From positions 1-56,088 of the forward strand of contig CAZAKL010000003.1 of the NCBI GenBank assembly GCA_964486025.1: a stretch of 56,088 bases of DNA, in the 5' to 3' direction. This stretch comes from an uncultured archaeon. GTDB taxonomy: Archaea > Iainarchaeota > Iainarchaeia > JAADDC01. The notes beneath the pieces are model-generated. The model did not search any database, was not told where the DNA came from, and saw only the letters and a program-made list of their open reading frames with translations. Shown here one piece after another: positions 2,997-26,028 of this stretch (positions are counted from its first letter, which is position 1; each line of letters opens with the position of its first letter). A program made the translations under genes and the position numbers.

Positions 2997-2997
2997 G

Positions 2998-3198: not shown

Positions 3199-3217
3199 CT
3201 CCTATAAAGAAAGTTTT

Positions 3218-7106: not shown

Positions 7107-7110
7107 AAAA

Positions 7111-9593: not shown

Positions 9594-9594
9594 A

Positions 9595-10563
9595 TTACCT
9601 CCAGGGGAAGATGGGTTTTTCCACGCCTTTCGGAACTGGTGGCTTGGAAAGTCTTGCTGATGGCATTCTGGCAGTATTGACTTTTACAGGAACTATCAGC
9701 TCAACAGGCTTGAAGAAAATCCTCCCGCCCCTGCTGAAAGACACGCCGTCCTCTTTCACTGCAACGACGAGAGAACCGTCCGGAAGCATGTCGCCCTTCT
9801 TCACGACAAACTCTGCGCCCTTTTCTCTCACGACAGCCTTGCAGGTAGAGTCGGAACATATCACCGAAATAACCCTCACGTTCAACGGCTCAACTGCAAC
9901 CGCAGGGTATTTAGCCCTCTTCTGTCTTTCGAGTTCAAGCCTCAAAGCTTTTATCTCAGCTTCAAGCTTTGAGTTCTGATCCTTCTTCTCCACTTTGCCC
10001 TGAAGCTCCGCAAGTTTTCTTTTTTTCTCAGCCATTTTTACTTCAAGCTCAAGTATCTGAGACTGGAGTTCCTTTATCTTCTTCTCTCTTTCAAGTTCCG
10101 ATATTTTGATGTCTTTACCGGTAAAAACGTCCGTTACAGGCTTAGGCTTTTTAGCCTGCTCTTTCACCGAAGCTGTGGTTCTCACCAGTGCTGATCTTTC
10201 AGGTGAAACTTTTGAAGGCTCCAGCCTGCCAGACTGCTTTGCAGAGGCACGGACAGCAGAGGAACGGTTAACGGACGGACGCTTCGGATTTTCCCCCTTT
10301 GCGACGTTCTCCTCCTCTTTTTCTTCACTTACCTTCTTCCCAACAGGATGGTGGGAAGGGGCGGACGCCCGACGGACAACTACCGTGTTGTGAGGCTTAA
10401 AAGAGTTGAACTCCGCCCTTTCCTTATATATTTTGTATCCTGCGTATCCCGCAACCGCCACCAGAACGAGAACGACGAGCTGCAGCTGCTTCTTCTTATC
10501 TTCAGGGGCTACCCCCTCTTCTGTTTTCCTACCCTTCAGCTTCTCCAGAAGGTCTTTCAGCAT
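9595..10563 (-). CDS. Bitopic coiled-coil protein with a PilP/GspC-HR-like C-terminal beta domain
   Basis: TM LVVLVLVAVAGYAGY, long charged coiled coil, C-terminus AVVREKGAEFVVKKGDMLPDGSLVVAVKEDGVSF. The ATG at 10563 is preceded by GGAGGAG. Confidence 0.5.
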   Translation of the reverse strand: MLKDLLEKLKGRKTEEGVAPEDKKKQLQLVVLVLVAVAGYAGYKIYKERAEFNSFKPHNTVVVRRASAPSHHPVGKKVSEEKEEENVAKGENPKRPSVNRSSAVRASAKQSGRLEPSKVSPERSALVRTTASVKEQAKKPKPVTDVFTGKDIKISELEREKKIKELQSQILELEVKMAEKKRKLAELQGKVEKKDQNSKLEAEIKALRLELERQKRAKYPAVAVEPLNVRVISVICSDSTCKAVVREKGAEFVVKKGDMLPDGSLVVAVKEDGVSFSRGGRIFFKPVELIVPVKVNTARMPSARLSKPPVPKGVEKPIFPWR

Positions 10564-11443
10564 CTTCTCCTCCAGGCACGCAGTATTTTGCCCAGCCGTA
10601 TCCGAGGTCAAGGCACGTTCCACCACCCATCATCAGCGACATCCCTTCGACATTGAGAAACTCAGGTTCACTCTTCGCAACGAAAACGGGAATGTTTCCG
10701 AGTTCCTCAAACAGCTTCTCGTCAAGGTAGTGAGCAACGCCGCCTATTATCACGACCTTTTCAAAAGGAATTGAAAGGTTTGAGAATTCTCTTTCTATGA
10801 TGTTTACAAACCTTTCTGTAAACATCTCTATTGCTTTCTGCTTTTCCTCGTTCAGCTCTACCGTGCTGAAACCTGCAGAAAAGAAACCCTGTTCAAAAGC
10901 TTTCTCTATCAGTCCTCTCGTTGTTGGAACTTCCGGATACTTTTCCTCAATCTGCTTTCTGAAATAGGAAAGCAGAACCGCCATTGAGGCTTCGTCGTAT
11001 AGGCTCTTGCAGAATTCAACGCTGTCGCCTGCCAGGACCGCCGCATTCAACGTCCTCATTCCGGCGTCCATCAGCAGGACCCTTTTTGGCAGGTCAACCT
11101 TTCTTCTAAGAGCGTAGAGACCGGTCAGTCCTTGAGGTAGAACCTTCTTATTTGTCTTTTCTTCAAGTTCTTCTACTATCCCTCCACCTTTTTTCATTGA
11201 TCTGTAAAAGTCCTCAAGAGGAACGGAAATTGCGTCAACTTTCTTTCCGGTCTTCTCCTCGACATATTTGATAAAAATGGGATATGCCTTAATCAGTTGC
11301 TTCGTTGTTGCTATGTGGGAACACAGGTGGGGTTCCAGCAGTGCTGCGTCCCCGACAACGTAATACTTCCCTTCCACTTCAATGCTTCCGTCTTCCCTGA
11401 CGGGAACTGCCCTGTAGATGCTTCTCACCTTTCCCTTCTTCAT
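10529..11443 (-). CDS. Actin-like ATPase (PilM-like or ParM-like)
   Basis: Phosphate-2-like LLMDAGMRTLNAAV and adenosine-like VVIIGGVAHYL. First gene of the pilus block, but also preceded by an RHH protein and iterons. Confidence 0.55.
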   Translation of the reverse strand: MKKGKVRSIYRAVPVREDGSIEVEGKYYVVGDAALLEPHLCSHIATTKQLIKAYPIFIKYVEEKTGKKVDAISVPLEDFYRSMKKGGGIVEELEEKTNKKVLPQGLTGLYALRRKVDLPKRVLLMDAGMRTLNAAVLAGDSVEFCKSLYDEASMAVLLSYFRKQIEEKYPEVPTTRGLIEKAFEQGFFSAGFSTVELNEEKQKAIEMFTERFVNIIEREFSNLSIPFEKVVIIGGVAHYLDEKLFEELGNIPVFVAKSEPEFLNVEGMSLMMGGGTCLDLGYGWAKYCVPGGEDAERPSGEAEG

Positions 11444-11506
11444 GTCCGTCCTCCTCGTTATGATTATTATAACAAAAATAATGCAAAATTGTTTCGCATG
11501 GACCGA

Positions 11507-11929
11507 TTAATCTTTAAACTTGAATGGAAAATCAAAACCCTCCTTTTTCTCCGCGTCTTTCTCCTCCTGTTTCTGGGTGGGTTGAGAGAGAACGCCTTTA
11601 ACCGCTTTTCTCTTCGGCTCTTCCTTCGGGTATGTGCGTTCGTTCCTGATAATCAGAAAGGAAATCAGCGAAGAAAGGGTGAACTTGCCGTAAACGTTTT
11701 TCAGCGTCTCAACGTCTATGTGGAACATGACCTTTTTCCTGACAGGGGAAGGTTCGTATTCCGTCATGTATTCCCTGAGAATTGCGCCGTCCCCTTCAAG
11801 GCAGTTCCTGACAAACTCTTTCAGTAGTTCGTTAACGAGTTTATTGCCCTCCCTGTCCTGAGCCTTGCGCTTTAAAACTGAAGCGGCGTCAATATCTATG
11901 TTCGTCGTAATCCTCGTTTTAAACTCCAT
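11507..11929 (-). CDS. Tandem ribbon-helix-helix DNA-binding protein (ParR/TraY-like architecture)
   Basis: Two strand-helix-helix units: KTRITTNIDIDAASVLKRKAQ...LLKEFV and KKVMFHIDVETLKNVYGKF..LSSLISFLI. Basic, disordered tail. Confidence 0.5.
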   Translation of the reverse strand: MEFKTRITTNIDIDAASVLKRKAQDREGNKLVNELLKEFVRNCLEGDGAILREYMTEYEPSPVRKKVMFHIDVETLKNVYGKFTLSSLISFLIIRNERTYPKEEPKRKAVKGVLSQPTQKQEEKDAEKKEGFDFPFKFKD

Positions 11930-12099: not shown

Positions 12100-14139
12100 C
12101 TAAAAACTTCCAACTCTGCGCAGCTCTTCAAGGTCTTCGAGCAGTTCCTCGTCAGGCGGTAGCTGTTCATACTGTCCGGAAAAGATGACTTTTGCGACTT
12201 CAACCTTTTCCTCTTTTGAGAGTTCTTCATACATAGGATCACAGAGCAAACGGACAAGCCTGTCTATCCTCTTCATCTCTGCAAGAACTTTCAGCGTTTC
12301 AACGTATCCAATCCTTGCCGTTTCTTCGTCTTCAAGGAACTCAATGGATGGTTCATCTGCAGGCTCATCAACGAGTTCTTCTTCGTCGTAGTCAAGGCTA
12401 CACTCAACGCAGCTCTCACTTGCAGCTGCTTCCTCAAGCTCTTTCAGTCTCTTTTCCTTTGCTATCTCTTCAGAGCTTCTCAGGATTTCAAGAATTTCCT
12501 CGCTGTATCTGACGACGGAACGCTCGTAGGAAAGGATTTCAACCTTTCCTTCCTTCTTCGGTTCGTAAAAGTCAAACCTGGTCCTGAGGAAGTTTTCCCC
12601 CTGTATGACTATTCCCTCGCCCACGTCAAGCTTGTATATGGTTTCCGGTGGAATCAGGTAGTCTTCCTGAAGGGTTCTTCTTTCGTCCTCTTCCGTGATG
12701 ACTTCCCTCTTCCTGAAGTCGGGAATCATTTTCCTCACTCTCGGAATTCTCTCTTTGAAGAAGTCGTAAACAGCCCTTGAGCCTTCCACCCTCATGATGA
12801 TTTTGGTGTGGGAGTTGGCGAGAATTGAGTTCAGGTATCCTTCCCCATACTTCTCTTTGAGCGTATCCCAGTTCTGGTCGGCTATGATTACGCCGCCGCG
12901 GAGGGAGCGCACCTGCCTCATGTAGTCGTCTATGCCGACAATCGGCGCCGTTCCGTGTTCGTCAACGATAATTGCAAAGGGATTTTTGGGCTTTTCCCTC
13001 TTTTTCTTTTCCTTCAGCTCTTCATAGTCGCCCAGCAGACTCTCACCTAAGAGAATGCCCGTAGCGGTTCTGATGCTCGCGAGAATCAGCCTTCCTATTG
13101 CTTCTTTGGTTTTGTCGGGCATCTTCAGCGCTGGCATGTGAACGTAGAGAATTCTGTTCCTCTGAATGACGTCTATCATGTCTATGTCGGGGTTGTCCGT
13201 GTCAAAGATGTGCGCGTATCTGAGGGATATGTCAGAGAATATTTCCTTCCACTGCTGCAGGGCGTAGCCGTGCTGGGCGAGCAGGTCCGTTCCTATCTTC
13301 TTTATAGCCTGTGCACCCTTTTTTCTCACCTCGCCAGAGGGGTCAAGGTCCTGAAGATACATCAGGAAATACATCTTGTATTCTTCGGGGCAGTCGTTTG
13401 AAAGGAACGCTTCAACGATTGAGGAAAGCTCAAAAGATTCAAGGAATAGCTTGAGATTCGGCTTTCTCTTTTTTATGTCCCTCAGGTAGCAGAAGTTCCT
13501 GGCAGCTGCATTCATAAGGAACCTACCCCTTCCCTGCCAGTATTCCATCTCGCCCTTTGCGGGTGCGAGAAGGAAGAAAAAGAAATCCGCTATTTCCTGA
13601 GGATACTTGAGGGTGGCAAGGGGTGAAAAGGTGTGAGTTTCTCGGGTAACTGCAGCTGCAGGCGACAGGTTGAGAACGAGCAGGTCCTTTTCCACACCGA
13701 GTTCTTTGCAGAGAAAGTATAAATTGTGAAAATCCTCGTCCTCTGCCTTGAAGTTTATGTATATGATTCCGTAGTGCAGCGTCAGAAGCTGCCTTATGAT
13801 TGTCCTGTAAAGGCTGGTTTTTCCCATACCTGTTCCACCGACCACTACCATGTGCCGGTGGAAGTAAAAAGGCGTAATCTCAACCGGTCTTCCGAACTCG
13901 TCCCTTCCGAGCCTGAAGAGCGCGTCGTTTCCGCCTATCCTCGTTTCTTCAAACAGCTTTCTGAACTTTTTAGAGTAGATGCCCGCCGCTACCGTTGCAG
14001 CTGCCGACAGGAAGAGGTCGTCCGGCTTAAACAGGGGTAAAACTGCAGAGAAAGCAGCGGTCAGCGTTGAAATGTCCGTTCTTACCTTCAGTTCCTTCGG
14101 CGAATACTTTCTCTTCAGCCTTTCTCTCAGGTATTCCAT
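12100..14139 (-). CDS. Type IV coupling protein (VirD4/TraG/TraD family ATPase)
   Basis: N-terminal TM segments, Walker A VVGGTGMGKTS, Walker B FAIIVDEHGT, GGVIIADQNWDTL, acidic C-terminal tail. The ATG at 14139 has the best SD spacing; the ORF extends to 14172. Confidence 0.8.
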   Translation of the reverse strand: MEYLRERLKRKYSPKELKVRTDISTLTAAFSAVLPLFKPDDLFLSAAATVAAGIYSKKFRKLFEETRIGGNDALFRLGRDEFGRPVEITPFYFHRHMVVVGGTGMGKTSLYRTIIRQLLTLHYGIIYINFKAEDEDFHNLYFLCKELGVEKDLLVLNLSPAAAVTRETHTFSPLATLKYPQEIADFFFFLLAPAKGEMEYWQGRGRFLMNAAARNFCYLRDIKKRKPNLKLFLESFELSSIVEAFLSNDCPEEYKMYFLMYLQDLDPSGEVRKKGAQAIKKIGTDLLAQHGYALQQWKEIFSDISLRYAHIFDTDNPDIDMIDVIQRNRILYVHMPALKMPDKTKEAIGRLILASIRTATGILLGESLLGDYEELKEKKKREKPKNPFAIIVDEHGTAPIVGIDDYMRQVRSLRGGVIIADQNWDTLKEKYGEGYLNSILANSHTKIIMRVEGSRAVYDFFKERIPRVRKMIPDFRKREVITEEDERRTLQEDYLIPPETIYKLDVGEGIVIQGENFLRTRFDFYEPKKEGKVEILSYERSVVRYSEEILEILRSSEEIAKEKRLKELEEAAASESCVECSLDYDEEELVDEPADEPSIEFLEDEETARIGYVETLKVLAEMKRIDRLVRLLCDPMYEELSKEEKVEVAKVIFSGQYEQLPPDEELLEDLEELRRVGSF

Positions 14140-14260
14140 CCGCATCCCCCTTTTTACTCGGACGGGGCGCAAATTTCTGATACCCCACTTCCATAAGCGT
14201 TATGTTAATGTATAATTATAATTAATTATGGCTAACGGGAACGGACAATCGGAGGACGAG

Positions 14261-15811
14261 ATGACTGTTCTTGTCGTTAAAGAGATAAGGCAGGGAAAGA
14301 AGCAGGGAAGCTGGTGGCTCAAAACGGAAAATGGGAACAGTCTCTACACCCTTGACGAGCGGTTTGTAGAGGAATTCAAAAAGGGAATCAGGAAGTTTGA
14401 AGCGAGCGTGAAAGAAGTAAAGAGCAAGAAAGGAAACAAGTTTTTCGTTGCAACCTACGTGAAGGGACTGGAACAGCCCAGAGCCGAAGAAAAGAAAGGA
14501 GAGAAAGCGCAGCCCCTGCCGGACTGGAAGAAAGCCGCCGAAAGGTTGAGGAAGGTTGAGAAAGAGATAACGTCAAGGATTCTCTTTTCCGAGAGGCAGA
14601 CCAGACTTGCGCTGCTTACATCCGTCGTGGGCGGGAACATGATGCTCGTCGGGGACGTGGGAACCGGAAAGTCGGCAGTCGTGGAACTCGTGGCGTCGGC
14701 GTTCACGAGCAACTACGGATATTGGCAGATGTCAAGGTTCACGTCACCCGAGCAGGTTTTCGGTTCTGTTGATCTCAAGGCGTTCAAAGAGAAAAATCAG
14801 CTCATATACAACGTTGAAAGCTTCAGAAACAAGGAATTTCTCATATTTGACGAGTTTCTCTACGCAGACGGAAAGGTAAGGGAAATCCTCAACGACGCTC
14901 TCGTTGCGAGGCGTATATCCCCCGACACAAGGGGACAGATGCCGATAAAGGCGAGAGCGATTTTTGCAACCGGGAACTACATACCTAACCTGACGGACCC
15001 TGAGGTAAAGCTTCAGGGCGACGTAGCCATTATGGACAGAATGAACATCATATGCTTCGTCACGATAGAAAGAGAAGCCGTAAAGAAGGTCATAGCCGAA
15101 GCGTTCAAGAACAGCAAAGTCGGCGAGAGAAAGTTTGAAACGCCGATAGCCTCGATCTCCGACCTTGAATCCGTCAAACAGAAGGCAAAAGAATTGTTGA
15201 AAAACAACGATAAACTCGCCTCTTTCGTTGCAGAGTTCACTCAAACGGTGTTTGAGATGCAGCAGAATTTCTTCCCGAAGGAATACCAAGCCTCCCTAAG
15301 GAAGTTGATTAAAGCTGGTTTTTACGCTGCTTCAAACGCTATCGTGGAAGGAAGAGAAGTAGTTCTTCCGAGGGACTTTTTACTCGTTTATTCCAGTCTG
15401 CACCCGAAGCAGGAAGAGGCATATGTGCAAGCTCTGTCTTCTTCAATGCCCTTTGAGGTCTTTGAGGATGCATACAAGATAGTTAAAGCAGCCCATAAGG
15501 CTAAAGAGCAGGGCATTAGCGCAAAAAAGTTTATCGTTTCCCTTGTCAAAAAGGGTGAGGATTTTTCCCAGCTTGAGGCGCTGATAACGTCAAGCCTGAA
15601 AGCCGTAAACAGCGTCAAGGGAAATCAGCTTGCAGAAAGCTACGCCAAATACTTTAAAGAAGCCGTTAGCTTTGATTCTGTTTCAAAGTGGATAAGAAGA
15701 GGACTCAGGGAAGCAAAAAACGACGAATCCCTTCTTGAGGAAGTAGCTGCCAAAGTTGAAAAAATATCCGAAGAGGAAATTGCCAGAGAGTTAGAAGAAA
15801 TAAAGATGTGA
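14261..15811 (+). CDS. MoxR/RavA-like AAA+ ATPase with an extra N-terminal domain
   Basis: Walker A MLVGDVGTGKSAVV, Walker B FLIFDEF, sensor-1-like AIFATGN. GGAGGA lies 5 nt before the ATG at 14261; the ORF-track start at 14228 lacks an SD. Confidence 0.7.
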   Translation: MTVLVVKEIRQGKKQGSWWLKTENGNSLYTLDERFVEEFKKGIRKFEASVKEVKSKKGNKFFVATYVKGLEQPRAEEKKGEKAQPLPDWKKAAERLRKVEKEITSRILFSERQTRLALLTSVVGGNMMLVGDVGTGKSAVVELVASAFTSNYGYWQMSRFTSPEQVFGSVDLKAFKEKNQLIYNVESFRNKEFLIFDEFLYADGKVREILNDALVARRISPDTRGQMPIKARAIFATGNYIPNLTDPEVKLQGDVAIMDRMNIICFVTIEREAVKKVIAEAFKNSKVGERKFETPIASISDLESVKQKAKELLKNNDKLASFVAEFTQTVFEMQQNFFPKEYQASLRKLIKAGFYAASNAIVEGREVVLPRDFLLVYSSLHPKQEEAYVQALSSSMPFEVFEDAYKIVKAAHKAKEQGISAKKFIVSLVKKGEDFSQLEALITSSLKAVNSVKGNQLAESYAKYFKEAVSFDSVSKWIRRGLREAKNDESLLEEVAAKVEKISEEEIARELEEIKM

Positions 15812-15816
15812 GGTAA

Positions 15817-17364
15817 GTGGGTGTGCTTTACGACTACTTCATGAGGCTCAGGAAAAAGAAAAACGATGTTGAAGACTGGTTTACTTACAGGGTTTCAACG
15901 GGAGCAATCCTTGAGATTTTTTCTTCAAAGTTGAAGGATACAGAACCTGAAAGTGAGGAGATCGGCAGGAACATTTTCACCTACTTCTACGAACCTTCTG
16001 TTTCTATGAAAGAAATAAAAGATGAAGTAAAGAGAGAAGCCGTTAAAAAGTTCATGGGAAGATTCGTAGAGTGGACAAAAGGACTAAAAATCCTCACCAC
16101 CGACGACATAACCAATGCCGTGTCGGCAACGTTCAGTGTTCTGAAGGGTGCAATCGGCTACTACACTACGCTTTTAGAAGTCATAAAAGCAAGGAAGAAG
16201 TTGGAAGAGGTTGGAGATAAAACCGGGTCGGAGGAACTTAAAGAGATTCTGAAGGATGCTGTGAGCGAGATAGATAAACTCATAGAGGAGAGTAGTTTTG
16301 ACCAAGTCACGGGCATGATTGATAGCGCTAACAGGATTATCAAGGAAGCGATCTCTTTCGCGGAGAGTAAGGGTCTCCACAAAGAGTCTGACGAGATGTC
16401 CAGTGTGCTCTGCGAATACGTCAGCCTGTCCTACCTGCCGTCCCAGAAAGAGATACAGGAAGGGATGGAAAGAGCCAGAAACCTCGTGGAAGGCGTCATC
16501 AGAGCTGCGGGAGACAATCCTGCTTCCGTCAGCAACTACGAAAAAGCCATATATACCCTTTACCTTTCAAGGCAGGATCAAAACGTTCTGAAGTATCTCG
16601 GAAACCTTCTTGAGGTTTCTGAGGGAATGAGAAAAAGGGAAATATCGGAGGACCGCAGCACGAAGAGATACGGAAGAGAAATAGACAAAGCCGTTCCGTC
16701 GCAAATAGCCTTTCTGCTTGACGGTGACCTTTCAGACCTTGAGATGAAGAAGATAGCGGAAGGAACCCTGACCGTTTACGGAAGCTCAGAAAAAGAAAAG
16801 GCAGGATACGGACCATTCGTCATGTGTCTTGACGTTTCGGGGTCAATGAGGGAAATGAGGGAAAGGCTTCTTAGCAGGGCGAAGGCGGTGGCGATTTTTC
16901 TCGCCCTAAAGGCAAAGAAAAGGGGAATTCCCTTCATCCTGATTCCGTTTGACAGTGAGCCGAGAAAGGCGTTCATTCTGCTCCCAGACGAAAAGGACTA
17001 TATCAAAAAAGCTTTTGACAGGATAGGAAGGCTGACAGCCTGCGGCGGAACAAACTACACCAGAGCAATAGAAAAGGCACTTGAGGAATCCAGGAAGTTC
17101 TCTGAAAACTACGGCAGGAAACCAGATCTGCTGTTTATAAGCGACGGTAGACCGCATGACGAGTATAACCCCGAAGTCCTCTCCGAAGCTGAGGACTTCT
17201 TTGAATCAAAGGTGTTTGTCGGAATAGAGTGTGAGGTTACAATGGGATTTAATAACTTTTTTGATAAGAGCGTCGTATTCTCCGGTAGCGACTTCCACGA
17301 AAGGATAGCCGAGAGCGTGGACGAACTGCTGGAGGCGGAGAAAGGCAGAGGATTAACTCTTTAG
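15817..17364 (+). CDS. von Willebrand factor A (VWA) domain protein (ViaA-like partner of the MoxR ATPase)
   Basis: MIDAS motif FVMCLDVSGSMRE, GGTNYTRAI, LLFISDGRP. Helical N-terminal ~330 aa. Confidence 0.85.
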   Translation: MGVLYDYFMRLRKKKNDVEDWFTYRVSTGAILEIFSSKLKDTEPESEEIGRNIFTYFYEPSVSMKEIKDEVKREAVKKFMGRFVEWTKGLKILTTDDITNAVSATFSVLKGAIGYYTTLLEVIKARKKLEEVGDKTGSEELKEILKDAVSEIDKLIEESSFDQVTGMIDSANRIIKEAISFAESKGLHKESDEMSSVLCEYVSLSYLPSQKEIQEGMERARNLVEGVIRAAGDNPASVSNYEKAIYTLYLSRQDQNVLKYLGNLLEVSEGMRKREISEDRSTKRYGREIDKAVPSQIAFLLDGDLSDLEMKKIAEGTLTVYGSSEKEKAGYGPFVMCLDVSGSMREMRERLLSRAKAVAIFLALKAKKRGIPFILIPFDSEPRKAFILLPDEKDYIKKAFDRIGRLTACGGTNYTRAIEKALEESRKFSENYGRKPDLLFISDGRPHDEYNPEVLSEAEDFFESKVFVGIECEVTMGFNNFFDKSVVFSGSDFHERIAESVDELLEAEKGRGLTL

Positions 17365-17373
17365 GAGGAAAAA

Positions 17374-18279
17374 ATGGGAATAAAGGAAACGCTGATTGAC
17401 GCCCTTGAGGCTGTTGAGCTGATGAACGAGGCAAGACTTTCTGGAACGGGTTTGTTCAGGCTGCCGATTACCGCTATCAACGGGGAATTCTACACTCCCG
17501 ACTCCGGCGGGTTTCCTGTATATATGACCGTCTGGCGCTACCCGAGAAGGAACAGGTTTCCCGCTTTTACTCTTTTCACTGTAGAGGATAAAAACTTTTT
17601 CAAGGCGATAGAGGCGGACATTCTGAATAAAGAAACGTTCGTGGATGACCTGAAGAAGGGAATTGAGAAAATAGCCGAATTTACAATCGGCAAGAACGTT
17701 CCACAGCATAAGCACCCATACATTGAAGTAACGCCCCTTCAAAGGCTTTCTCTTTCAGAGATTGAACCGCAGGTGGAAAGTCTTGATAAGATATTTAAAA
17801 ACAACAGATACATAGAACACAGAAAGAGAGAGGTAATGGACTTCATTTCCGGAATAGAAAAGTTAAAGAACTCTGAAGGGTTTGTTACAGCTTTCATAGG
17901 AGTTTCAACGGTGAGAAGAGTCGATACAAGCGACACAAGAACGTCAAAGCAATACGTCTACCTTGCATGCGACAGAGACGGCTTCTACTGGCGCAGCCGT
18001 CTTAATAGTGAAAACACTTTTGACCTTTATCAGCTATACTTCAGAGCACTTCCCTTCATAGACGAAAGCGACGACATGTATGTTGACTTTTCAAACGTTT
18101 CGCTTCTTAACAACAAGGCTGGCAATTTTCTCTTGGCTGGAAATTTGAGGGAAGTAGTAAAGACCGCCCTTGACGTTGCCAGAAACGCACCGCCGGTGAA
18201 GATAGCAATGAGGATGGAAGAGCTTCAGAAGCTCATATTCAGCAGGAAGCCCGGGACTACGATAAAACCTAAAACGTAG
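17374..18279 (+). CDS. Hypothetical protein (301 aa)
   Basis: AGGAGG SD, 9-nt gap to the VWA gene. No motif recognised. Confidence 0.6.
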   Translation: MGIKETLIDALEAVELMNEARLSGTGLFRLPITAINGEFYTPDSGGFPVYMTVWRYPRRNRFPAFTLFTVEDKNFFKAIEADILNKETFVDDLKKGIEKIAEFTIGKNVPQHKHPYIEVTPLQRLSLSEIEPQVESLDKIFKNNRYIEHRKREVMDFISGIEKLKNSEGFVTAFIGVSTVRRVDTSDTRTSKQYVYLACDRDGFYWRSRLNSENTFDLYQLYFRALPFIDESDDMYVDFSNVSLLNNKAGNFLLAGNLREVVKTALDVARNAPPVKIAMRMEELQKLIFSRKPGTTIKPKT

Positions 18280-18289
18280 GAGGACAGCA

Positions 18290-19477
18290 ATGAGAAAAAT
18301 AGAAATGCAGAAAGATAAGGGAATATGCGAGGGGTTTTTTGGCGAGCTGTTCGGGAATGTGGGATTTTTCAACGACGCCTACATTCTGCCCAATAAGCCG
18401 ATAAAACTTCTAATCGGATACGAGGCGAAGGAACTTGACGTCTATCTTGACGAAGAAGGAATCAAGTATCTGATAGACATGTTCAGACACTTTACATTTG
18501 GGGAAAACGCGGAGAAAGAGGAATACAAGAGAATAGAAGACTTTGCTGTAAGAATTCCGGAATACAACTTCAGGGTCCACCTTTTAAAGGTGGGAGCCTC
18601 AAGAGACTACAACGCCTTTATTCTCCGCAGGCAGTTTCACTACATTCCAAAACCTGAGCAGCTGAAGATTCCGGCACCGGTCGTCCAGACTTTCATTTCG
18701 GAAGTAGAGAAGGGCAACGGCGGACTCATCCTGCTCGTCGGGAAGCAGAGGCAGGGGAAGTCAACAACTGCAGCTTCCCTCCTTGACGAGGTGAACGAAA
18801 AAGAAACAGATAAGGTAATAGTGACCGTCGAAAACCCAATAGAATACATACTTGAGCCGAAAAAGAGTGTCGTGATACAGAAAGACGTAATCACCTACGC
18901 CGACGAGAAGGTTTCCTCAACGGAAGAACTGATAGAGAAGGCTTCAAGGAACGCCCTGATTTCCGCTGCAAGGGAATTTCCATCTGTCGTCCTGATTGGG
19001 GAAATCAGGACGAAGTTTGAAGTTGATATGGCTGTTTCCCTTGCAGAGAGCGGCGTCCTGGTGGTCGGAAGCTTCCACGGTGAGAGCGTTCCGAAGGCAC
19101 TGGTGCGCTTTTTGAACATGGCAACGGCTGGCGCTTCTTCCGAAAGTGAGAGGAAGCTTAGAAGGCTTCAGGTCGTTTCAATGATACGCGCAACCGTCGG
19201 GCAGAAGCTTCTTCCGAACAGGGACAACAGAGAAAAGCTTGAACTTGTCACCGAATACCTGATACATAATCCAAGTATCCTTGAAGTTAAGACTCTGATG
19301 AACCTTCTTATACAGGACAAGCCGTTTGACTTCTTCCTGAACTTCGGAAGGAAGAAGAGCCAATACGTCGTTTCTCTGCCGAACGCCCTGTCTGAAGCCG
19401 TTGCGGAAGGAAGAATATCAAAAGAGGACGCTAACGCTGCGAACCCATACGCTGTTTCTTCGGTTTATGCTACTTAG
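18290..19477 (+). CDS. Divergent PilT/VirB11-superfamily secretion ATPase
   Basis: Walker A GKQRQGKST, Asp-box-like VVLIGEIRTKFE, His-box-like GSFHGES. AGGAGG SD. Confidence 0.7.
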   Translation: MRKIEMQKDKGICEGFFGELFGNVGFFNDAYILPNKPIKLLIGYEAKELDVYLDEEGIKYLIDMFRHFTFGENAEKEEYKRIEDFAVRIPEYNFRVHLLKVGASRDYNAFILRRQFHYIPKPEQLKIPAPVVQTFISEVEKGNGGLILLVGKQRQGKSTTAASLLDEVNEKETDKVIVTVENPIEYILEPKKSVVIQKDVITYADEKVSSTEELIEKASRNALISAAREFPSVVLIGEIRTKFEVDMAVSLAESGVLVVGSFHGESVPKALVRFLNMATAGASSESERKLRRLQVVSMIRATVGQKLLPNRDNREKLELVTEYLIHNPSILEVKTLMNLLIQDKPFDFFLNFGRKKSQYVVSLPNALSEAVAEGRISKEDANAANPYAVSSVYAT

Positions 19478-19486
19478 GGAGGAGGC

Positions 19487-19711
19487 GTGTGCGTAAAAGT
19501 TGAGACTGTATGGGGAAGTGAGACCTTCCCGGAAGAGATACTGAACCTTCCAGAAGAACACTACAGAGACCTGCTGAGGAAAGAGGAATATTCCGATAAG
19601 GTTTTAAAGCTGATGCGCCTGCGCGATGCGCTTCTCGACGGCTTGAACGTTATTCCGCCCGAGAAGGTTGAGAAGTTCGTTTCAGTGATGAGGAAGATAA
19701 AACTGATTTGA
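19487..19711 (+). CDS. Hypothetical protein (74 aa, GTG start)
   Basis: GGGAGGAGG SD; operon context. Confidence 0.5.
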   Translation: MCVKVETVWGSETFPEEILNLPEEHYRDLLRKEEYSDKVLKLMRLRDALLDGLNVIPPEKVEKFVSVMRKIKLI

Positions 19712-19721
19712 GAGGAAAGAG

Positions 19722-20435
19722 ATGCTCTTTGATTTTGATAAAGTGAAGAGAAAAGCCGAAAGCTATGACGAACCGTTCTTCTTTCTCGGAAGAACGGCTA
19801 TGTATGTCATGAAAAAGGTTTTTGACGCAGAGGAAAGGGCAGTTAAAGGGCTTCAATACGCTCTGAGGAACGGCGGGGTAGAAAACGCACTACTGACTTT
19901 AAAGGATAAAGTGAAAGATTTCCTCAAAAAGCCGTCTGCGAAAAACTTCTCTTCTCTAACCAGACTTGCGTGTCTCGTTGAACTGGTAAGGGATTCAGAA
20001 GCTCTGCGTTCCACCCCCGAACTTGCTGCCTTCCGCTCCGGCGTTTTGACAGCAATCATGGCTGCAGAGGTCAGGAAAAAGCCGATTAAGAAAGCCCTGC
20101 TTGACGCTACCTACAAATTCCTTGAGAGAAATAACCTTGAAAGTGAATTTTCAAAAAGGCTGAGAAGGGCAATCTCAGAGCTTTCCGTTGAAGAGGTTGA
20201 TAGGGGACTTACGGTAGAGGAAGCGATTAAGCTTGCAGTTCTGCTTGACGAGCTTCAGGAAGGGAACGCCGACGTTCTTGAAAATGAAGAGAACGCAAAG
20301 ATATACGCGAAGTTTCTGATAAAGACAGGGAACGACGAGGCGGTTACCCTGTTCGCTTCAGAACACGCAAACGAGATAGATGCCGACTTCAGGGATTCAA
20401 CGAAGATTTACGTTGAAAGTCCCCGCCTTAACTGA
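19722..20435 (+). CDS. Hypothetical all-helical protein (237 aa)
   Basis: SD GAGAGGAAAG. Last gene of the operon, followed by a hairpin. Confidence 0.55.
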   Translation: MLFDFDKVKRKAESYDEPFFFLGRTAMYVMKKVFDAEERAVKGLQYALRNGGVENALLTLKDKVKDFLKKPSAKNFSSLTRLACLVELVRDSEALRSTPELAAFRSGVLTAIMAAEVRKKPIKKALLDATYKFLERNNLESEFSKRLRRAISELSVEEVDRGLTVEEAIKLAVLLDELQEGNADVLENEENAKIYAKFLIKTGNDEAVTLFASEHANEIDADFRDSTKIYVESPRLN

Positions 20436-20442
20436 AGGCGGG
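20422..20442 (+). terminator. Hairpin at the end of the MoxR-VWA operon
   Basis: CCCGCC-TTAACTGAA-GGCGGG spanning the stop codon. Weak T-tail. Confidence 0.4.
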
Positions 20443-20584
20443 CATTTCGCTATACTCGTCCGTCTAACTTTCTGCCTGTCTTTTTTCTTATTTACCCCAC
20501 CCCATTACTTAAAGAAGATAAAGAAGAAAGGAATACTTTCTACTTTCAGTCCACTCTATTAGTGATTTCTCTGCCATAGCTACT

Positions 20585-21115
20585 CTACCTCAGGTTCCTT
20601 ACAACTTCGGGCAGCCTTTCCTGTAAAATCTTCTCTATACTCACCTTTTCGTTGATGCTGCTGGCTTCCCACAATATAAACCAATCGGGCATGCTTCTCG
20701 TGTAGTCCCAGTATTTCGTCCCGTTGGGTAGGAACACCATAACAGGTTGCATCACGCATAAGTCAAGGGATTGAGGAACGTTACCCTCGTCGGGTTCATA
20801 CTCTATAAAGAAGAGGTCTTCCGGACGGACGCTTATCCCCTCGTTTTCAAGGACCATGTGAAAGAACGACGCAAAGTGTTCAATCCCGTTTACAAGAGAG
20901 CTTCCGCCTTCATTTACCCCTTTTTCTTTGAGGATTTTCGGACTGCTCGTCACCACCGCGGCATAGACCTCTCTGCCGCCGACCGGAACTCTGTAGAGTT
21001 CCACGAACGCGTGACCGCGCCTGACGCTCTTTCTGTCCGAAAAAACCGCAGAAAAGGGGATGGGATATCCGATTACAAACTCGCCGACCTTTTCCACTTT
21101 TGTCGCTTCTACCAT
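20585..21115 (-). CDS. Hypothetical protein (176 aa)
   Basis: Follows the primase gene on the same strand. No motif recognised. Confidence 0.55.
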   Translation of the reverse strand: MVEATKVEKVGEFVIGYPIPFSAVFSDRKSVRRGHAFVELYRVPVGGREVYAAVVTSSPKILKEKGVNEGGSSLVNGIEHFASFFHMVLENEGISVRPEDLFFIEYEPDEGNVPQSLDLCVMQPVMVFLPNGTKYWDYTRSMPDWFILWEASSINEKVSIEKILQERLPEVVRNLR

Positions 21116-21133
21116 TACTACCCCCTGCAGGAT

Positions 21134-22102
21134 TTAGGCTGGTGACATAGTGGGTTTCGCGCTTTCAACCGGACGAACCCTTATGGGTTCACCTCTGACG
21201 AGAGCTTCGTTAAGGTCCTTTGAAGAAAAGACGAACTCAAAAACTTCCTTGTCCGTAAGTTCTTCCAGCAGTTTCTCTTTCGCCTCTTTACCCGCGTCGT
21301 CGTTGTCGAGTCCGAGAACTATTCTGTCGTAGTTTTCAAAGACGCCCTTCTCAAGCGCCCTGTCAACCATGACGACGCTGTTTAATATCAGCACATCGTA
21401 GTCGGAGTTTCTGTTGAGCTGTTCAACGGTCAGCGCGTCAAACAGCCCTTCCACGACAACGAGTTTTCCGTTTTCCCTTCCCCTCTTTATCAGGGAAAAA
21501 GAGTGTTCCTGTTCGGGGTCTGTCCTGAGGTTTATCTTCATTTTTGGGTTTCTTATCACCCAGCTTCCGGTCTCGGTCTGCACGCCTACGCCCCAGAACT
21601 TCTTTACCTCACCGGTATCCTTCCTTACTACCTCAAAGGAAACCTCTTTGAGCCAGGGGGGGATTTTCCTTATGCCCCTCTCTTTCAGGTATTCAAGCAG
21701 TTTTCCGTATTTCACCTGCCTCACGTTTGACTTTAAAACGTCATAGGAAGATTCTTTCTTCCTCTTCCCTGCGCTCTTCCACTTTCTAACGAGCGCTTTC
21801 TTTTCGAGGTCGTCGTATATGCCGAGGAACTTTTCTTTCAGATACCTGATGCTCTCTGCAAGGTCCCAGCCGAGAGCTTCCATGTAGAGATCTATCCAGG
21901 TTCCACCCTTCCCTGAACCGAAGTCCTTCCACAGCCATATTCCGTCAACCTGCCTGATTGATACGGAAGGGGTTCTTTCATCCCGCCAGACCGCAAGTGC
22001 CATTATCTGCGACGGGTATTCCCTGTAGGGAATACTGAGGTCGTTTAAAATTAGCTCTGGTGGCAGAGCTTTTATCAGTTCAAGTTCATGTTCCCTGTCC
22101 AT
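21134..22102 (-). CDS. DnaG-like primase (Toprim domain) with a cysteine-less zinc-finger-like N-terminus
   Basis: Toprim motifs VVVEGLFDALTV and LGLDNDDAGKEA. The N-terminus AVWRDERTPSVSI...WKDFGSGKGGTWIDLY aligns by eye to the CHC2 finger pattern, but all metal ligands are replaced. Confidence 0.75.
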   Translation of the reverse strand: MDREHELELIKALPPELILNDLSIPYREYPSQIMALAVWRDERTPSVSIRQVDGIWLWKDFGSGKGGTWIDLYMEALGWDLAESIRYLKEKFLGIYDDLEKKALVRKWKSAGKRKKESSYDVLKSNVRQVKYGKLLEYLKERGIRKIPPWLKEVSFEVVRKDTGEVKKFWGVGVQTETGSWVIRNPKMKINLRTDPEQEHSFSLIKRGRENGKLVVVEGLFDALTVEQLNRNSDYDVLILNSVVMVDRALEKGVFENYDRIVLGLDNDDAGKEAKEKLLEELTDKEVFEFVFSSKDLNEALVRGEPIRVRPVESAKPTMSPA

Positions 22103-22145: not shown

Positions 22146-22171
22146 TATAAAAAATGATAAGGAGGAATCAA

Positions 22172-22735
22172 ATGCGATACGAAGTGAACCTGCTGGTGAC
22201 CCAGAACGCAAAGGTAAGAATGGACATAAACCACAAGGGGGACATCTACATTGAGATTTTCAGGAAAATTGGGGAAACAGAGAAAAACGGAAAGAAGCTC
22301 CCAATTTTCTACGACAGGGGAAGGAACCTGTCCGATTCCAGGACTATGAAGCTGAACGTGAACGAGCTTGCGACAATCAAGAGAGGGTTGAGGATTTTCA
22401 TAGACGAGGGACTTGAGGCGTTTCAGAAGTATGCAGCAAGGGTGATGGGGAACGAGAAATATAACAACCTTCTCTTCCCACACCAGAGCAATCTCGTGGG
22501 ATTGAGGGCATACAAGGGAAAAAACGGAAAGGAATACATAGGTTTTGAAGTTCAGGACGGGGAAACAAACGAAAGATACAACGCCTTCACGTCAGACCTG
22601 GCTGTGCTGGAAGGCATATATGAAAAGCTCACTTTCTTGCTCGGAAAGTCCCTTGAAAACAAAACTGCGGTTTCAAGAAGGGCCAGACCAGAAACAGAAG
22701 TGGATGAGGAGGAAGAGATTGGTCCAAGACCGTAA
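22172..22735 (+). CDS. Hypothetical protein with an acidic C-terminal tail (187 aa)
   Basis: The ATG at 22172 follows AAGGAGG. The tail is ETEVDEEEEIGPRP. No family recognised. Confidence 0.6.
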   Translation: MRYEVNLLVTQNAKVRMDINHKGDIYIEIFRKIGETEKNGKKLPIFYDRGRNLSDSRTMKLNVNELATIKRGLRIFIDEGLEAFQKYAARVMGNEKYNNLLFPHQSNLVGLRAYKGKNGKEYIGFEVQDGETNERYNAFTSDLAVLEGIYEKLTFLLGKSLENKTAVSRRARPETEVDEEEEIGPRP

Positions 22736-23777
22736 GGGTTTCTTCTCAACCGAAATGGTCATCGTTATAGCCGTTACGATGCTGATTGCGTCAGCGCTCA
22801 CGGAAGTAATATCAACCGGGATTAGGTATTACAAGAAGTTTGTTGCTCTCCAGGAAATGAGAAGAATTGCAGAGGGGATAAAGAAATACTACGAAGAGAA
22901 CGCGTTTCTAGTAAACAGCCGGCGGATTGATTCCCTCTATTCAGATGTTCTCCCTGACGGGTCTCCGTCGGTCCGTCTTCCTCTCCCCGACGGGTCGTTT
23001 CTGGTTCCAGAGATAGACTACGACAGAAGCTCCAACCCGTCGGGGCTTCGCTACTTCTCGACAAACCCTTTCGATGAGGGCGGAACGAACTTCAGAATAT
23101 ACATCTCGCCCCTGAAGGAAGACCCAGCAGGGAGGTATGCATACAGGGACATCTGGATAATAGACACCAAGGGCAGAAGGCACAGGATGCTGTCAAAAAT
23201 AGTGAACGGGGAAATCCAGTGCGACCCGTCCGAAGTATGCTATCGAGTCTCAGGCAGGGACATAACCGAAGACCTCTACGAGAAGACAATTCAGCAGGTT
23301 GAAAAAATTGCTGCAAAGCTTTCGGACTACACCGGTTCCCGCTACGCCGCAGATCCAAGAAAGTCGACGCTGAAATACTACTTTGCGAACACCGATACGA
23401 ACGGATATAGCGATGCCCACTGCACGGGCGGTCCGGGATGCTACTTTGCGTCCGCAAGCGAGATACCGAACACATACAGGGTAACGCACTATTCGGACAT
23501 AACAGAACAGACCATAGACGGACATGTCACGGTCTCCTATTCAACGGCAGGGCTTTCATACGTCCCGAACCTGTCCCTGCTTTCGCAGATAGTTCCGCAG
23601 CTCTTTTCGCCTGAAGAGATAGAGACGCCATTTAGAACGAGAGTCTGGTTCGACAACAGCAGTCCGAACGTAAGAAATCCGCAAACGTTAGGACTGAGCA
23701 ACCTTGGGGGCTACAACGCCCTGCTCGTTACCTGCATTGACGATACTCACTGTGTAACATACAGGGTGTCCCAATAG
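22704..23777 (+). CDS. Large pilin-like protein (prepilin-type N-terminus, 357 aa)
   Basis: MRRKRLVQDRKG|FFSTEMVIVIAVTMLIASAL: G-1, F+1, E+5. The upstream 53 codons of the tracked ORF overlap the previous gene. Confidence 0.7.
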   Translation: MRRKRLVQDRKGFFSTEMVIVIAVTMLIASALTEVISTGIRYYKKFVALQEMRRIAEGIKKYYEENAFLVNSRRIDSLYSDVLPDGSPSVRLPLPDGSFLVPEIDYDRSSNPSGLRYFSTNPFDEGGTNFRIYISPLKEDPAGRYAYRDIWIIDTKGRRHRMLSKIVNGEIQCDPSEVCYRVSGRDITEDLYEKTIQQVEKIAAKLSDYTGSRYAADPRKSTLKYYFANTDTNGYSDAHCTGGPGCYFASASEIPNTYRVTHYSDITEQTIDGHVTVSYSTAGLSYVPNLSLLSQIVPQLFSPEEIETPFRTRVWFDNSSPNVRNPQTLGLSNLGGYNALLVTCIDDTHCVTYRVSQ

Positions 23778-23787: not shown

Positions 23788-24225
23788 ATGTTGCTTGTTC
23801 TGCTAACCCTGATTCTGTCCTCTACGGCAAACGCGATTGAAGTTGTTCTTCCCGCTTACACATACGAAAATCCGATACAGGCTTGTCTTGAAAACGCGGC
23901 AGAGAAGTTCAACGTTCCTCTTTCTCTGCTCTACAGGATTGCAAGGGTGGAGAGTGACTTTAACCCTTACGCCCTGCACCCGAACAGGGACGGAACGCTT
24001 GACGTGGGGCTTCTGCAGATAAACAGCAGAAACATAAAGAGGTTCGGCTACACGGTAAAGGAAGTTTACGAAAATCCCTGCCTCGGCATAGAACTCGGGG
24101 CGAGGTATTTGAGGGAATGCATTGACAGATACGGTCTCAACAAGAAGGGAATCGGCTGCTACCACAGCCGGACGCCGTCTCTGTCCAGGAAGTATGCGTC
24201 AAAAATTCTCGCAGGGAGCGAATAA
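23788..24225 (+). CDS. Lytic transglycosylase (SLT domain, VirB1-like)
   Basis: Signal peptide. Catalytic-Glu motif RVESDFNPYA, then GLLQINS and a Y-rich C-terminus. Confidence 0.85.
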   Translation: MLLVLLTLILSSTANAIEVVLPAYTYENPIQACLENAAEKFNVPLSLLYRIARVESDFNPYALHPNRDGTLDVGLLQINSRNIKRFGYTVKEVYENPCLGIELGARYLRECIDRYGLNKKGIGCYHSRTPSLSRKYASKILAGSE

Positions 24226-24765
24226 TTGAGAAAAAGAGGTAAAATTAACAATGTCGTTATTATGGATAACGATGTCGTATTCCCCCACGGAGAGGAAATG
24301 GAATTAGACAGGATTGTGGCGACTTTTAAGGATTACCTCAGCATTGCTGGTATAAGCAGTCAATCACTTGCTGCTTATACCACGCCTTTCAAGAGAATTG
24401 TTGACACGTATATGAAAGAAAACCACATCTTTGACATTTCAATTGAGGACGTTGAGAAGGCAATTGACAGGTTTATAGAGGACGAAAAGTTCCGTGAAAA
24501 GGTAAAAGGGAACAGGAACTACAACTGGAAAAAGGTAATAGAGTATGCAATCGGATTCATCAATCACTATAAGGAATTGACTTTTCTTTCAAAGAAAGAA
24601 GGGGACTGGATAATCAGATGCACGAAAATATTTGCGGAACCGATATACGTGAAAGATTGGGAGGAGTCAAAGACTGGTGCGTTCATAAGAATAAAGACCG
24701 TTGAGGGAAAAGAGTTTTTCATAAACTCATCTATTGTTCTCTATATCAAGAGAAACGATGAGTAG
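24226..24765 (+). CDS. Hypothetical protein (AT-rich islet)
   Basis: TTG start; an internal ATG (MDNDVV) is possible. Visibly more AT-rich than the flanks. Confidence 0.5.
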   Translation: MRKRGKINNVVIMDNDVVFPHGEEMELDRIVATFKDYLSIAGISSQSLAAYTTPFKRIVDTYMKENHIFDISIEDVEKAIDRFIEDEKFREKVKGNRNYNWKKVIEYAIGFINHYKELTFLSKKEGDWIIRCTKIFAEPIYVKDWEESKTGAFIRIKTVEGKEFFINSSIVLYIKRNDE

Positions 24766-24770
24766 GGGAA

Positions 24771-25838: not shown

Positions 25839-26028
25839 AGAGTGGATTTCCGTTGCATACATTCCCAGCTCTTCGGAAGACGCAGTGCTGATTATAGACA
25901 TTGAAAATAGGAGAATCCGCAAAGAACCCCTCAGACAAGGGTCCGTGAAGATTAATAACTTTAAGGGAAAAGTATTTGCTTTCTCAAGCGATTTCTTAAA
26001 AGAGCTAAATGAAATGGCAGTTAAGTAG
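25816..26028 (+). CDS. Hypothetical small protein (70 aa)
   Basis: Overlaps the previous gene by 23 nt. ACTTGACAAA lies ~30 nt upstream. Confidence 0.4.
   Translation: MGGKMKNKEWISVAYIPSSSEDAVLIIDIENRRIRKEPLRQGSVKINNFKGKVFAFSSDFLKELNEMAVK

Follow-up and report, generated by a model that had tools for sequence, protein, structure and literature searches.

Pairs of a MoxR-class AAA+ ATPase and a VWA-domain protein are regarded as chaperone/co-chaperone couples which reorganise protein complexes, and the survey which gave this summary also delineated MoxR-vWA-centred ternary conflict systems, a beta-propeller subtype of which gave the Pfam family bpMoxR (Kaur, Burroughs, Iyer and Aravind 2020; PMC7159879). 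MoxR and VWA genes are also present on the conjugative backbones of pCAR1 (ORF101/103), R478, Rts1 and SXT/R391 (PMC2642839), and vWA and MoxR/GvpN pairs are linked to type IV pilus loci of thaumarchaea (Makarova et al. 2016; PMC4858521). The subject here is a block of six genes, g1 to g6, at positions 14261-20435 of contig CAZAKL010000003.1 from an uncultured archaeon. The window, that is the whole stretch of 56,088 nucleotides analysed, is nearly all of this 56.5-kb contig, which has the appearance of a conjugative plasmid. In the block a MoxR-VWA pair (g1, g2) shares an operon with a PilT-class ATPase (g4).

To our knowledge, conjugative type IV secretion systems (T4SS) have been described with three classes of ATPase, namely VirB4, VirD4 (the type IV coupling protein, T4CP) and VirB11/DotB, and the role of the MoxR-VWA pairs on the pCAR1 and SXT/R391 backbones is still unexplained. 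PilT-class ATPases (TraJ/DotB) are regular parts of I-type and type IVB (T4B) conjugation systems. The reading which we favour, with a probability of about 0.5, is that the block would be a cytoplasmic module with an accessory or assembly function in a rare conjugation system of T4B-like type with a DotL/TrbC-type T4CP. A part in the conjugative apparatus, and not in a conflict island, is argued for by its fixed place between the T4CP gene and the gene of a VirB1-like lytic transglycosylase (SLT), the restriction of g3 to this context, and the continuity of the operon with the SLT gene in two relatives. The catalytic residues and those of the metal-ion-dependent adhesion site (MIDAS) in g1, g2 and g4 are all invariant in the orthologues.

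A preliminary description of this DNA, made from the sequence alone, knew of no described system coupling a MoxR-VWA pair to a PilT/VirB11-like motor on a conjugative element. Literature searches for the MoxR-VWA-PilT combination returned nothing relevant, and its conserved occurrence in one operon seems to be new, although the separate parts have precedents in TraJ/DotB, in the conjugative backbones (PMC2642839) and in the thaumarchaeal loci (PMC4858521).

Layout of the operon

The genes of the block, its signals and the flanking genes which recur in its relatives are as follows.

12100..14172, - strand: T4CP of the DotL/TrbC type, divergent from g1; Pfam TrwB_AAD_bind and TraG-D_C
14173..14260, no strand: divergent intergenic region between T4CP and g1, AT-rich, with TATAAT-like hexamers
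14261..15811, + strand: g1 (open reading frame, ORF, open from 14228); 516 aa from 14261, 527 aa from 14228
15817..17364, + strand: g2, VWA protein of 515 aa
17374..18279, + strand: g3, putative soluble alpha+beta protein of 301 aa
18290..19477, + strand: g4, divergent PilT-class ATPase of 395 aa
19487..19711, + strand: g5, small conserved protein of 74 aa
19722..20435, + strand: g6, fast-evolving protein of 237 aa
20422..20494, + strand: hairpins at the operon end, candidate terminator from fold computation
22154..22735, + strand: conserved protein of 193 aa with an acidic C-terminal tail
23788..24225, + strand: VirB1/IagB-like lytic transglycosylase (SLT); Pfam SLT 2.4e-17; NCBIfam IagB, TrbN and VirB1

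As first described, the six genes lie on the same strand with gaps of 5-10 nt, the ORF list giving 5, 9, 10, 9 and 10 nt; from this spacing alone we infer translational coupling. Strong AGGAGG-type Shine-Dalgarno (SD) sequences precede g1, g3, g4 and g5, and those of g2 (GAGGT, 3 nt before GTG) and g6 (GAGAGGA) are weaker. For g1, the start at 14261 is preferred to that at 14228 since GGAGGA lies 5 nt upstream of it and it matches the N-termini of the orthologues in the alignment; the ATG at 14228 has no SD.

Both GC skew and AT skew go positive exactly at 14-20 kb, flanked by minus-strand blocks, which supports one transcription unit on the + strand. The region 14173-14260 is presumed to hold the promoter site for both directions, and a consensus scan called no full sigma-70 site in it. 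At the other end, the stop codon of g6 overlaps with a perfect stem of 8 bp (20422-20442, -14.2 kcal/mol), and an alternative 11-bp stem (20434-20483, -14.3 kcal/mol) is followed by a U-rich run. The hairpin originally placed after the last gene is thus present as stems, but the fold is only modestly better than that of shuffled sequences (z = -1.8) and was not reported by a consensus terminator scan; it is a possible terminator. None of the six proteins (0/6) contains a transmembrane segment, and all six are predicted to be cytoplasmic.

Relatives and conservation of the block

Related loci were recovered from the following sources.

L001, JGI metagenome 3300041958, 6.2-kb contig: a minus-strand ORF, short and truncated by the end of the contig, g1-g2-g3-g6, a homologue of the 22154-22735 gene, SLT; without g4 and g5
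L002, metagenome of a deep-sea hydrothermal sulfide chimney (PMC7329443), 24.8-kb contig Ga0072504_102453: T4SS genes, T4CP (- strand), g1-g2-g3, an extra gene of 188 aa, g4-g5-g6, SLT
L006 and L007, NCBI metagenome-assembled genome (32.7-kb contig JBPLGN010000100.1) and Logan assembly: T4SS genes, T4CP (- strand), g1-g2-g3-g4-g5-g6; SLT is next in L006, and L007 ends inside g6
L003, Logan assembly SRR34265293, 7.1-kb contig: g3-g4-g5-g6-g6'-SLT
L008, ENA metagenome ERZ1669248, 5.4-kb contig: g2-g3-g4-g5, a g6-like gene, SLT
L004 and L005, ENA metagenome and Logan assembly, contigs of about 2 kb: g2-g3-g4 (cut)

The gene order of L003, L008 and L004/L005 is seen only as far as their contigs reach, and the contigs of L002 and L006 were covered in part, their left parts lying outside the comparison. 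The concern raised in the preliminary description, that homologues of these genes might never occur together elsewhere, is removed by the identical order in five independent contig groups (L002, L006/L007, L003, L008 and L004/L005), with L001 as one variant. Its repeated appearance in independent contigs whose proteins are 25-50% identical makes the order more than chance. Identities to the window are 32-47% for g1, 26-32% for g2 and 25-35% for g3.

Where the flanks are visible, they consist of a divergent T4CP gene on one side and a VirB1-like SLT gene downstream. The T4CP of the window is 52-54% identical to the module-adjacent T4CPs of L002 and L006; the SLT protein is 31-48% identical in L001, L002, L003 and L006, and its copy in L008 is 35% identical (tblastn). 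In L002 and L006, g6 abuts or overlaps the SLT gene and the operon continues without a gap; the ancestral unit was therefore larger than six genes. Beside the T4CP in the same two relatives are homologues of the window T4SS genes 48301-50576 and 52726-53505.

Two departures of the window from this arrangement were observed. The T4SS genes of the relatives adjoin the T4CP directly (window 1316-11929 against L002 1-7091 and L006 1-7031); if the window contig is circular, the 11-kb type IV pilus cluster comes between the two in the window, which hints at an insertion or rearrangement. Downstream, the order from g6 to SLT found in L001, L002 and L006 is broken by a primase and a 176-aa ORF (20585-22102, - strand). 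The genes lying between g6 and SLT in the window are the minus-strand primase, this 176-aa gene, the 193-aa gene and the pilin-like ORF. The product of 22154-22735 is 51% identical to that of L001 5025-5537, which there lies between g6 and SLT, and it matches no family; its tail (EVDEEEEIGPRP) recalls the tails of single-stranded DNA-binding proteins (SSB type). Membership of this 193-aa protein in the module is uncertain.

The block is not indivisible, since L001 is without g4-g5, L002 has an extra gene and L003 two g6 paralogues. In L001, g4-g5 are cleanly gone and g3 and g6 are 15 nt apart; the additional 188-aa gene of L002 (10859-11425) lies between g3 and g4, and in L006 a gap of 90 nt precedes g4. 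Such breaks would be expected if a generic RavA/ViaA-like cassette had merely received an inserted g4-g5 ATPase cassette, two unrelated functions lying side by side with no joint machine. The sharply different conservation of the two parts (39-48% for g4-g5, 25-35% for g1-g3) fits this explanation, and MoxR-VWA pairs stand alone in phages, large phages and plasmids being carriers of such cassettes. However, in five independent groups at 25-48% identity g4-g5 are always exactly between g3 and g6, and g3 and g6 occur only with this module; a chance neighbourhood of two cassettes appears rather improbable.

The family is rare. A total of 15 billion predicted proteins yielded about seven contigs, including at least one of hydrothermal chimney origin, and the family marks a barely sampled plasmid lineage. 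In a word-indexed search of a 5.8-billion protein set, g1 has one close relative; in word-indexed protein searches the g3 query found only itself, and the g3 alignment gave the protein of the window and one relative. The exact g3 protein is absent from the contig collection. Against PLSDB, megablast of the operon and tblastn of g3 returned no close relatives, the element as a whole being distant from everything in that database. Scans of GTDB representative genomes and IMG/VR with the g3 and g1 alignments, run with suboptimal peptide patterns, found no relatives; absence from the GTDB representative genomes is weakly supported because the automatically chosen patterns were not the best. Of the loci kept from a metagenome scan with the g4 alignment, L008 is a true orthologue and the other 79 are ordinary PilT genes with no g1, g2, g3 or g5 nearby.

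Properties of the six proteins

The assignment of g1 to the MoxR/RavA-type AAA+ proteins in the preliminary description is borne out. The protein contains the motifs GDVGTGKS and FDEF and scores above threshold with Pfam bpMoxR (60.7 bits, cut-off 27; 1.3e-16) and AAA_5 (59.4 bits, cut-off 22; 4.9e-16). Both Walker motifs are present, as are conserved candidates for sensor 1 and the Arg finger, which gives it the features of the MoxR class. K137 (Walker A), D197/E198 (Walker B), N239 and R260 do not vary across 4 orthologues; judged from their positions alone, N239 is the candidate sensor-1 Asn and R260 the candidate Arg finger. L002 and L006 have GGTGIGKT as P-loop where the window has GDVGTGKS. 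The protein begins with a conserved, beta-rich domain of about 75 aa, which a linker connects to the AAA+ core; the C-terminal region, of about 140 aa, is helical. Counted from 14261, the extra N-terminal part (domain and linker) comes to about 95 aa and not the 130 or so first given.

The product of g2 contains a Pfam VWA_2 domain at residues 335-444 (37 bits, cut-off 27). The complete MIDAS attributed to it is present as DVSGSM, GGT and SDG, and its five residues (D339, S341, S343, T412 and D443), which make up a full DxSxS...T...D site, are invariant in 4 orthologues. The layout is ViaA-like, with a helical N-terminal region of about 320 aa followed by the C-terminal VWA domain, which stops about 70 residues short of the C-terminus. 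A g2 profile searched against PDB sequences gave generic VWA matches only.

Among described pairs, RavA-ViaA is close in several respects. RavA is the nearest solved structure to g1 (E-value=1.2e-8; g1 93-378 against RavA 10-284) and its nearest curated family, the MIDAS of g2 lies at the position equivalent to that of ViaA (g2 324-365 aligned to ViaA 316-357), and the ATPase gene stands directly ahead of the VWA gene, as in RavA-ViaA and in phage pairs. The scores, however, are far under the equivalog cut-offs (43.4 bits against 681 for RavA, 19.1 bits against 500 for NCBIfam ViaA), and membership of g1-g2 in RavA-ViaA is rejected on this account. Unlike RavA, g1 has the extra N-terminal domain; its alignment ends at RavA 284, and in this comparison no LARA domain, which in RavA binds LdcI, was detected. 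The pair also differs in the four further conserved genes attached to it and in its place in a transfer region.

The proteins of the pair match the phage families PHROG 19600 and PHROG 24053, the latter, a profile of 515 positions, being matched by g2 at 3e-15. Two-gene equivalents of g1-g2 were located by tblastn in Bacillus phage 0305phi8-36 (ORF66/ORF63) and Moorella phage MTATph1. Like the backbones described in PMC2642839, the present element carries a conserved MoxR-class ATPase and VWA protein; those clusters differ in being of the CbbQ-domain type, and that paper describes no PilT-like gene in them. A tblastn search with g1 gave 40 plasmid records, one of which is typed conjugative (1/40), and the matches listed are RavA-like or generic AAA ATPases. 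By analogy, g1-g2 would most simply be a chaperone and co-chaperone, a protein client being remodelled with the help of ATP hydrolysis and of binding by the MIDAS.

MoxR-vWA ternary systems offer a different model, in which the block would be a plasmid-borne NTP-dependent conflict system serving defence, anti-defence or entry exclusion. The protein g1 passes the threshold of bpMoxR, a family defined from MoxR-vWA conflict systems; further conserved genes accompany the MoxR and vWA core, as in those systems; g6 evolves fast and varies in copy number, as is typical of conflict genes; and the plasmid carries other conflict genes, e.g. AbiEii. In the beta-propeller ternary system, however, the vWA component has a C-terminal beta-propeller of about four blades, and the third component has a variable N-terminus, a membrane segment and tetratricopeptide-repeat (TPR) and beta-propeller regions (PMC7159879). 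The P-loop GxxxTAKS is frequent, though not universal, in ternary-system MoxR proteins, and uncharacterised alpha-helical and alpha+beta accessory proteins are mentioned (PMC7159879). The defining features are absent here: g2 has no beta-propeller or repeat family, the P-loop of g1 is not GxxxTAKS, and there is neither a TPR, propeller or transmembrane third component nor a recognisable effector domain. No TPR or WD family was matched, and the model of g3 shows a two-lobed alpha+beta protein. Membership in the beta-propeller ternary system is rejected by propeller, third component and P-loop alike. PADLOC-DB 2.0 gave no meaningful match, its weak ones (best E-value=8e-4) lying on P-loop segments or on the g2 N-terminal region, and the position next to T4CP and SLT is fixed at 25-50% identity, in contrast to the variable islands of defence genes. 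Exclusion would need a membrane protein, and with 0/6 proteins possessing a transmembrane segment entry exclusion was rejected. The preliminary description had left a choice between an assembly or remodelling device and a defence or exclusion system; the machine-linked function is the one favoured, and defence or exclusion, disfavoured by the fixed position, the missing transmembrane segments and the PADLOC result, is very unlikely.

The divergent secretion-type hexameric ATPase seen earlier in g4 is confirmed by Pfam T2SSE (68.9 bits, cut-off 24.9; 4e-19), which places it in the T2SSE superfamily. The motifs GKQRQGKST, ENPIEY, IGEIR and SFHGE are present and invariant in 4 orthologues, and the orthologues have in common the variant Walker A sequence GKQRQGKST and about 13 extra residues inserted past the Asp box. 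The best-scoring family is NCBIfam pilT_fam (TIGR01420; 136.1 bits, below the cut-off of 319.1), ahead of TraJ (76.1 bits, cut-off 368.3), DotB (48.4 bits, cut-off 463.3) and VirB11 (19 bits, cut-off 250). The nearest solved structure is Thermus PilT (1e-22) and the next DotB (1.6e-10), and the g4 family profile scores 46.7 bits against R64 TraJ. With 47-48% identity to its relatives, g4 is the most conserved protein of the operon; tblastn with g4 matches 3199 plasmids typed conjugative.

Like DotB and TraJ, g4 belongs to the T2SSE superfamily, has a PilT-like domain order and is found on a conjugative element with a DotL/TrbC-like T4CP and an IcmL/DotI-like protein. It differs from them in its Walker A sequence, its 13-residue insertion, its low TraJ and DotB scores and its sharing of an operon with a MoxR-VWA pair; a closer TraJ/PilT relative is encoded at 51704-52738. 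Membership of g4 in TraJ/DotB or in VirB11 was ruled out, the scores being far under the curated cut-offs.

The gene g5 is always directly 3' of g4, is 39-44% identical in L002, L003, L006 and L008 and is missing along with g4 in L001; its product is presumed from this linkage to be a partner of g4. It has no Pfam, NCBIfam, PADLOC or PHROGs family and no PDB sequence match.

The 301-, 74- and 237-aa proteins (g3, g5 and g6), in which no motif had been recognised, indeed have no match in Pfam, NCBIfam or PADLOC, and PHROGs gave only a non-significant match to g3 (E-value=0.03). No profile search tied them to a known pathway, the other outcome which the preliminary description had regarded as damaging to its proposal.

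An exhaustive HMMER search of 1.84 billion proteins found six representatives of the g3 family, and all members traced to contigs sit between the VWA gene and g4 or g6. An AlphaFold2 model from the six-sequence alignment reached a predicted local distance difference test (pLDDT) score of 87.2 and a predicted template-modelling score (pTM) of 0.84, against a pLDDT of 38 in a single-sequence run, and has two predicted alpha+beta lobes. Foldseek returned nothing significant with this model, the best PDB match having an E-value of 0.018 (template-modelling score 0.2) and the best BFVD match one of 0.086. On the model, g3 would thus be without a solved (PDB) or viral (BFVD) structural relative; 'new fold' would go further than this and is not established.

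A positional orthologue of g6 is found in all relatives. It is 29% identical in L001, and homology to the copies of L002, L003 and L006 is weak (21 bits by a leave-out hidden Markov model). L003 contains two tandem g6 paralogues (2298-3715) which are 31% identical to each other. The protein has no family match and no PDB sequence match, and is apparently helical.

Context and proposed role of the module on the element

The placement of the block on a conjugative element by the preliminary description agrees with the T4CP, VirB4/TraC-like, VirB9-like and IcmL/DotI-like genes and the type IV pilus cluster of the window. The machinery comprises the following features.

1316-11443, - strand: type IV pilus cluster with PilT-like, pseudopilin-like, PilC, PilB/GspE-like, MshL/PilN-type secretin, PilP and actin-like (10529-11443) genes
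22545-23777, + strand: large pilin-like ORF, 5' of SLT
43810-54264: T4SS operon with TraC/VirB4-like, IcmL/DotI-like and VirB9-like genes and a canonical PilT/TraJ-like gene at 51704-52738 (+ strand)
1316-2362 (-), 4204-5832 (-), 18290-19477 (+) and 51704-52738 (+): ATPases of the T2SSE superfamily

The T4CP scores 139 bits with NCBIfam TrbC_conju, below the cut-off of 800, and its family profile scores 85 bits against R64 TrbC; its best relative in PLSDB adjoins IcmP/DotM, and phmmer against that DotL gave 156 bits. DotL/TrbC is thus its nearest type, though under the cut-off, as judged from these comparisons. The IcmL/DotI-like protein reaches 24.8 bits (cut-off 175), and the VirB4 of the window is closest to TraC of the F type.

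Four T2SSE-superfamily ATPases are encoded on the 56-kb element, one PilB/GspE-like and three PilT-like. The latter score 225 (pilus cluster), 136 (g4) and 352 bits (T4SS operon) with TIGR01420, and the PilT cut-off is passed only by the gene of the T4SS operon (51704-52738; 351.8 bits pilT_fam, 176 bits TraJ). As the T4CP is DotL/TrbC-like and PilT-class ATPases are the usual partners there, g4 would be explained most simply as a traffic ATPase. In the stretches covered of L002 and L006, no homologue of 51704-52738 is found at the syntenic place; since both keep g4, this protein may be the resident traffic ATPase of the lineage.

The affinity of g4 to PilT also allows the module to be seen as serving the type IV (thin) pilus of the plasmid rather than the T4SS channel, with g4 as a retraction or regulatory ATPase and the MoxR-VWA pair controlling assembly or the maturation of a pilin or adhesin. 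PilT is the top-scoring family for g4, a full pilus cluster (PilB, PilC, MshL/PilN-type secretin and PilP) is present in the window, the pilin-like ORF 22545-23777 lies between the operon and SLT, and a homologue of the actin-like gene 10529-11443 occurs just downstream of the module in L006. The R64 pil operon includes a transglycosylase. Thaumarchaeal loci supply a precedent in that a vWA and MoxR/GvpN pair is genomically linked to a machine with a T2SSE-superfamily ATPase as its motor (PMC4858521); these pairs differ in being archaeal and chromosomal, in having an ArnB-type vWA and in being proposed as regulators, and no sequence relationship to them was found here. A pilus function is kept viable by the affinity of g4 to PilT, the presence of the pilin-like ORF and of SLT downstream, the actin-like gene of L006 and this precedent. 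Yet the pilus cluster has its own PilB and its own PilT-like ATPase (225 bits), and in the window the T4CP separates it from the module; in L002 and L006 module and T4CP are directly beside T4SS core genes, and L001 retains the MoxR-VWA-g3-g6 part without any PilT-like gene. Service to the pilus is therefore viewed as unlikely, if worth keeping in mind.

As an accessory module of the conjugation machine, the block would have two parts. A chaperone sub-module would consist of g1 (MoxR), g2 (VWA), g3 and g6, and a motor sub-module of g4, a hexameric ATPase of the PilT/DotB class, with the small g5; in the ancestral arrangement their genes would be co-transcribed with the VirB1-like transglycosylase and divergent from the coupling-protein gene. 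The g4 hexamer might dock at the cytoplasmic face of the transfer/pilus machine and energise it in the manner of DotB/TraJ. The MoxR hexamer would spend ATP while the MIDAS of the VWA protein grips an acidic residue of the client, which could be g3, g6 or a subunit of the coupling complex, all candidates by linkage only. Together, the sub-modules might assemble, activate or recycle the machine. A stronger version, in which MoxR/VWA, g3, g6 and the g4-g5 motor form an obligatory cytoplasmic sub-complex of the transfer machine that might replace the DotM/DotN/IcmSW adaptors on the DotL-type T4CP, is doubtful; it would bring a further class of ATPase into the energetics or assembly of type IV secretion, and g3, on its predicted structure, would be a new fold acting in conjugation.

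Several points weigh against a transfer role. The literature found includes no T4SS which uses a MoxR-VWA pair in transfer, and among the R64 Tra/Trb proteins profile searches with g1, g2, g3, g5 and g6 found no homologue. The window lacks a homologue of the DotM found on the nearest DotL plasmid. L001 keeps the chaperone part without g4-g5 in cis. The gene at 51704-52738 is, by its scores, a better TraJ/DotB candidate than g4, and as another PilT-like gene is present as well, g4 is not needed for a DotB role here; other T2SSE ATPases may lie outside the stretches covered of L002 and L006. A fixed position in a transfer region is by itself no proof of a role in transfer. Exclusion and establishment genes are found in such regions too.

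If the module does act in transfer, a MoxR AAA+ chaperone and a VWA co-chaperone would be added to the cytoplasmic side of the machine, and a MoxR-VWA pair on a mobile element would for the first time have a defined client context. If it does not, the block would be a rare but ordinary accessory operon. As a confident model without a structural neighbour in PDB or BFVD, g3 is in itself a target for structure determination.

The remaining features of the window are listed below.

21134-22102, - strand: Toprim/CHC2 primase of 322 aa
26021-26866, - strand: AbiEii nucleotidyltransferase toxin (Pfam 1.2e-17)
26869-27267, - strand: 132-aa ORF abutting the AbiEii start
31964-33364, - strand: 466-aa ORF with a weak subtilase (Peptidase_S8) match, E-value=0.002
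35919-37442, + strand: family-B DNA polymerase of the protein-primed (organellar/viral) type; Pfam DNA_pol_B_2, 1.5e-18
37783-39726, + strand: RecD2/TraI-like helicase

IncI plasmids carry a transferred primase too. The pilin-like ORF 22545-23777 contains an internal type IV prepilin-like leader (RKG/FFSTEMVIVIAV) in which the motif KGFFSTE resembles a class III signal; translation probably begins at the Met some 65 codons downstream of the start given in the ORF list, and the product may be a PilV-like minor pilin or adhesin. AbiEii and the 132-aa ORF probably constitute a type IV toxin-antitoxin or abortive infection pair. Scans of the window for tRNA and Rfam families were empty. The occurrence of the family-B polymerase and the RecD2/TraI-like helicase side by side on a conjugative element may point to an unusual mode of replication or transfer. 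Two segments, 24001-26000 and 40001-42000, have a low G+C content (0.39-0.40 against about 0.46-0.49 elsewhere) and may be recently acquired cargo.

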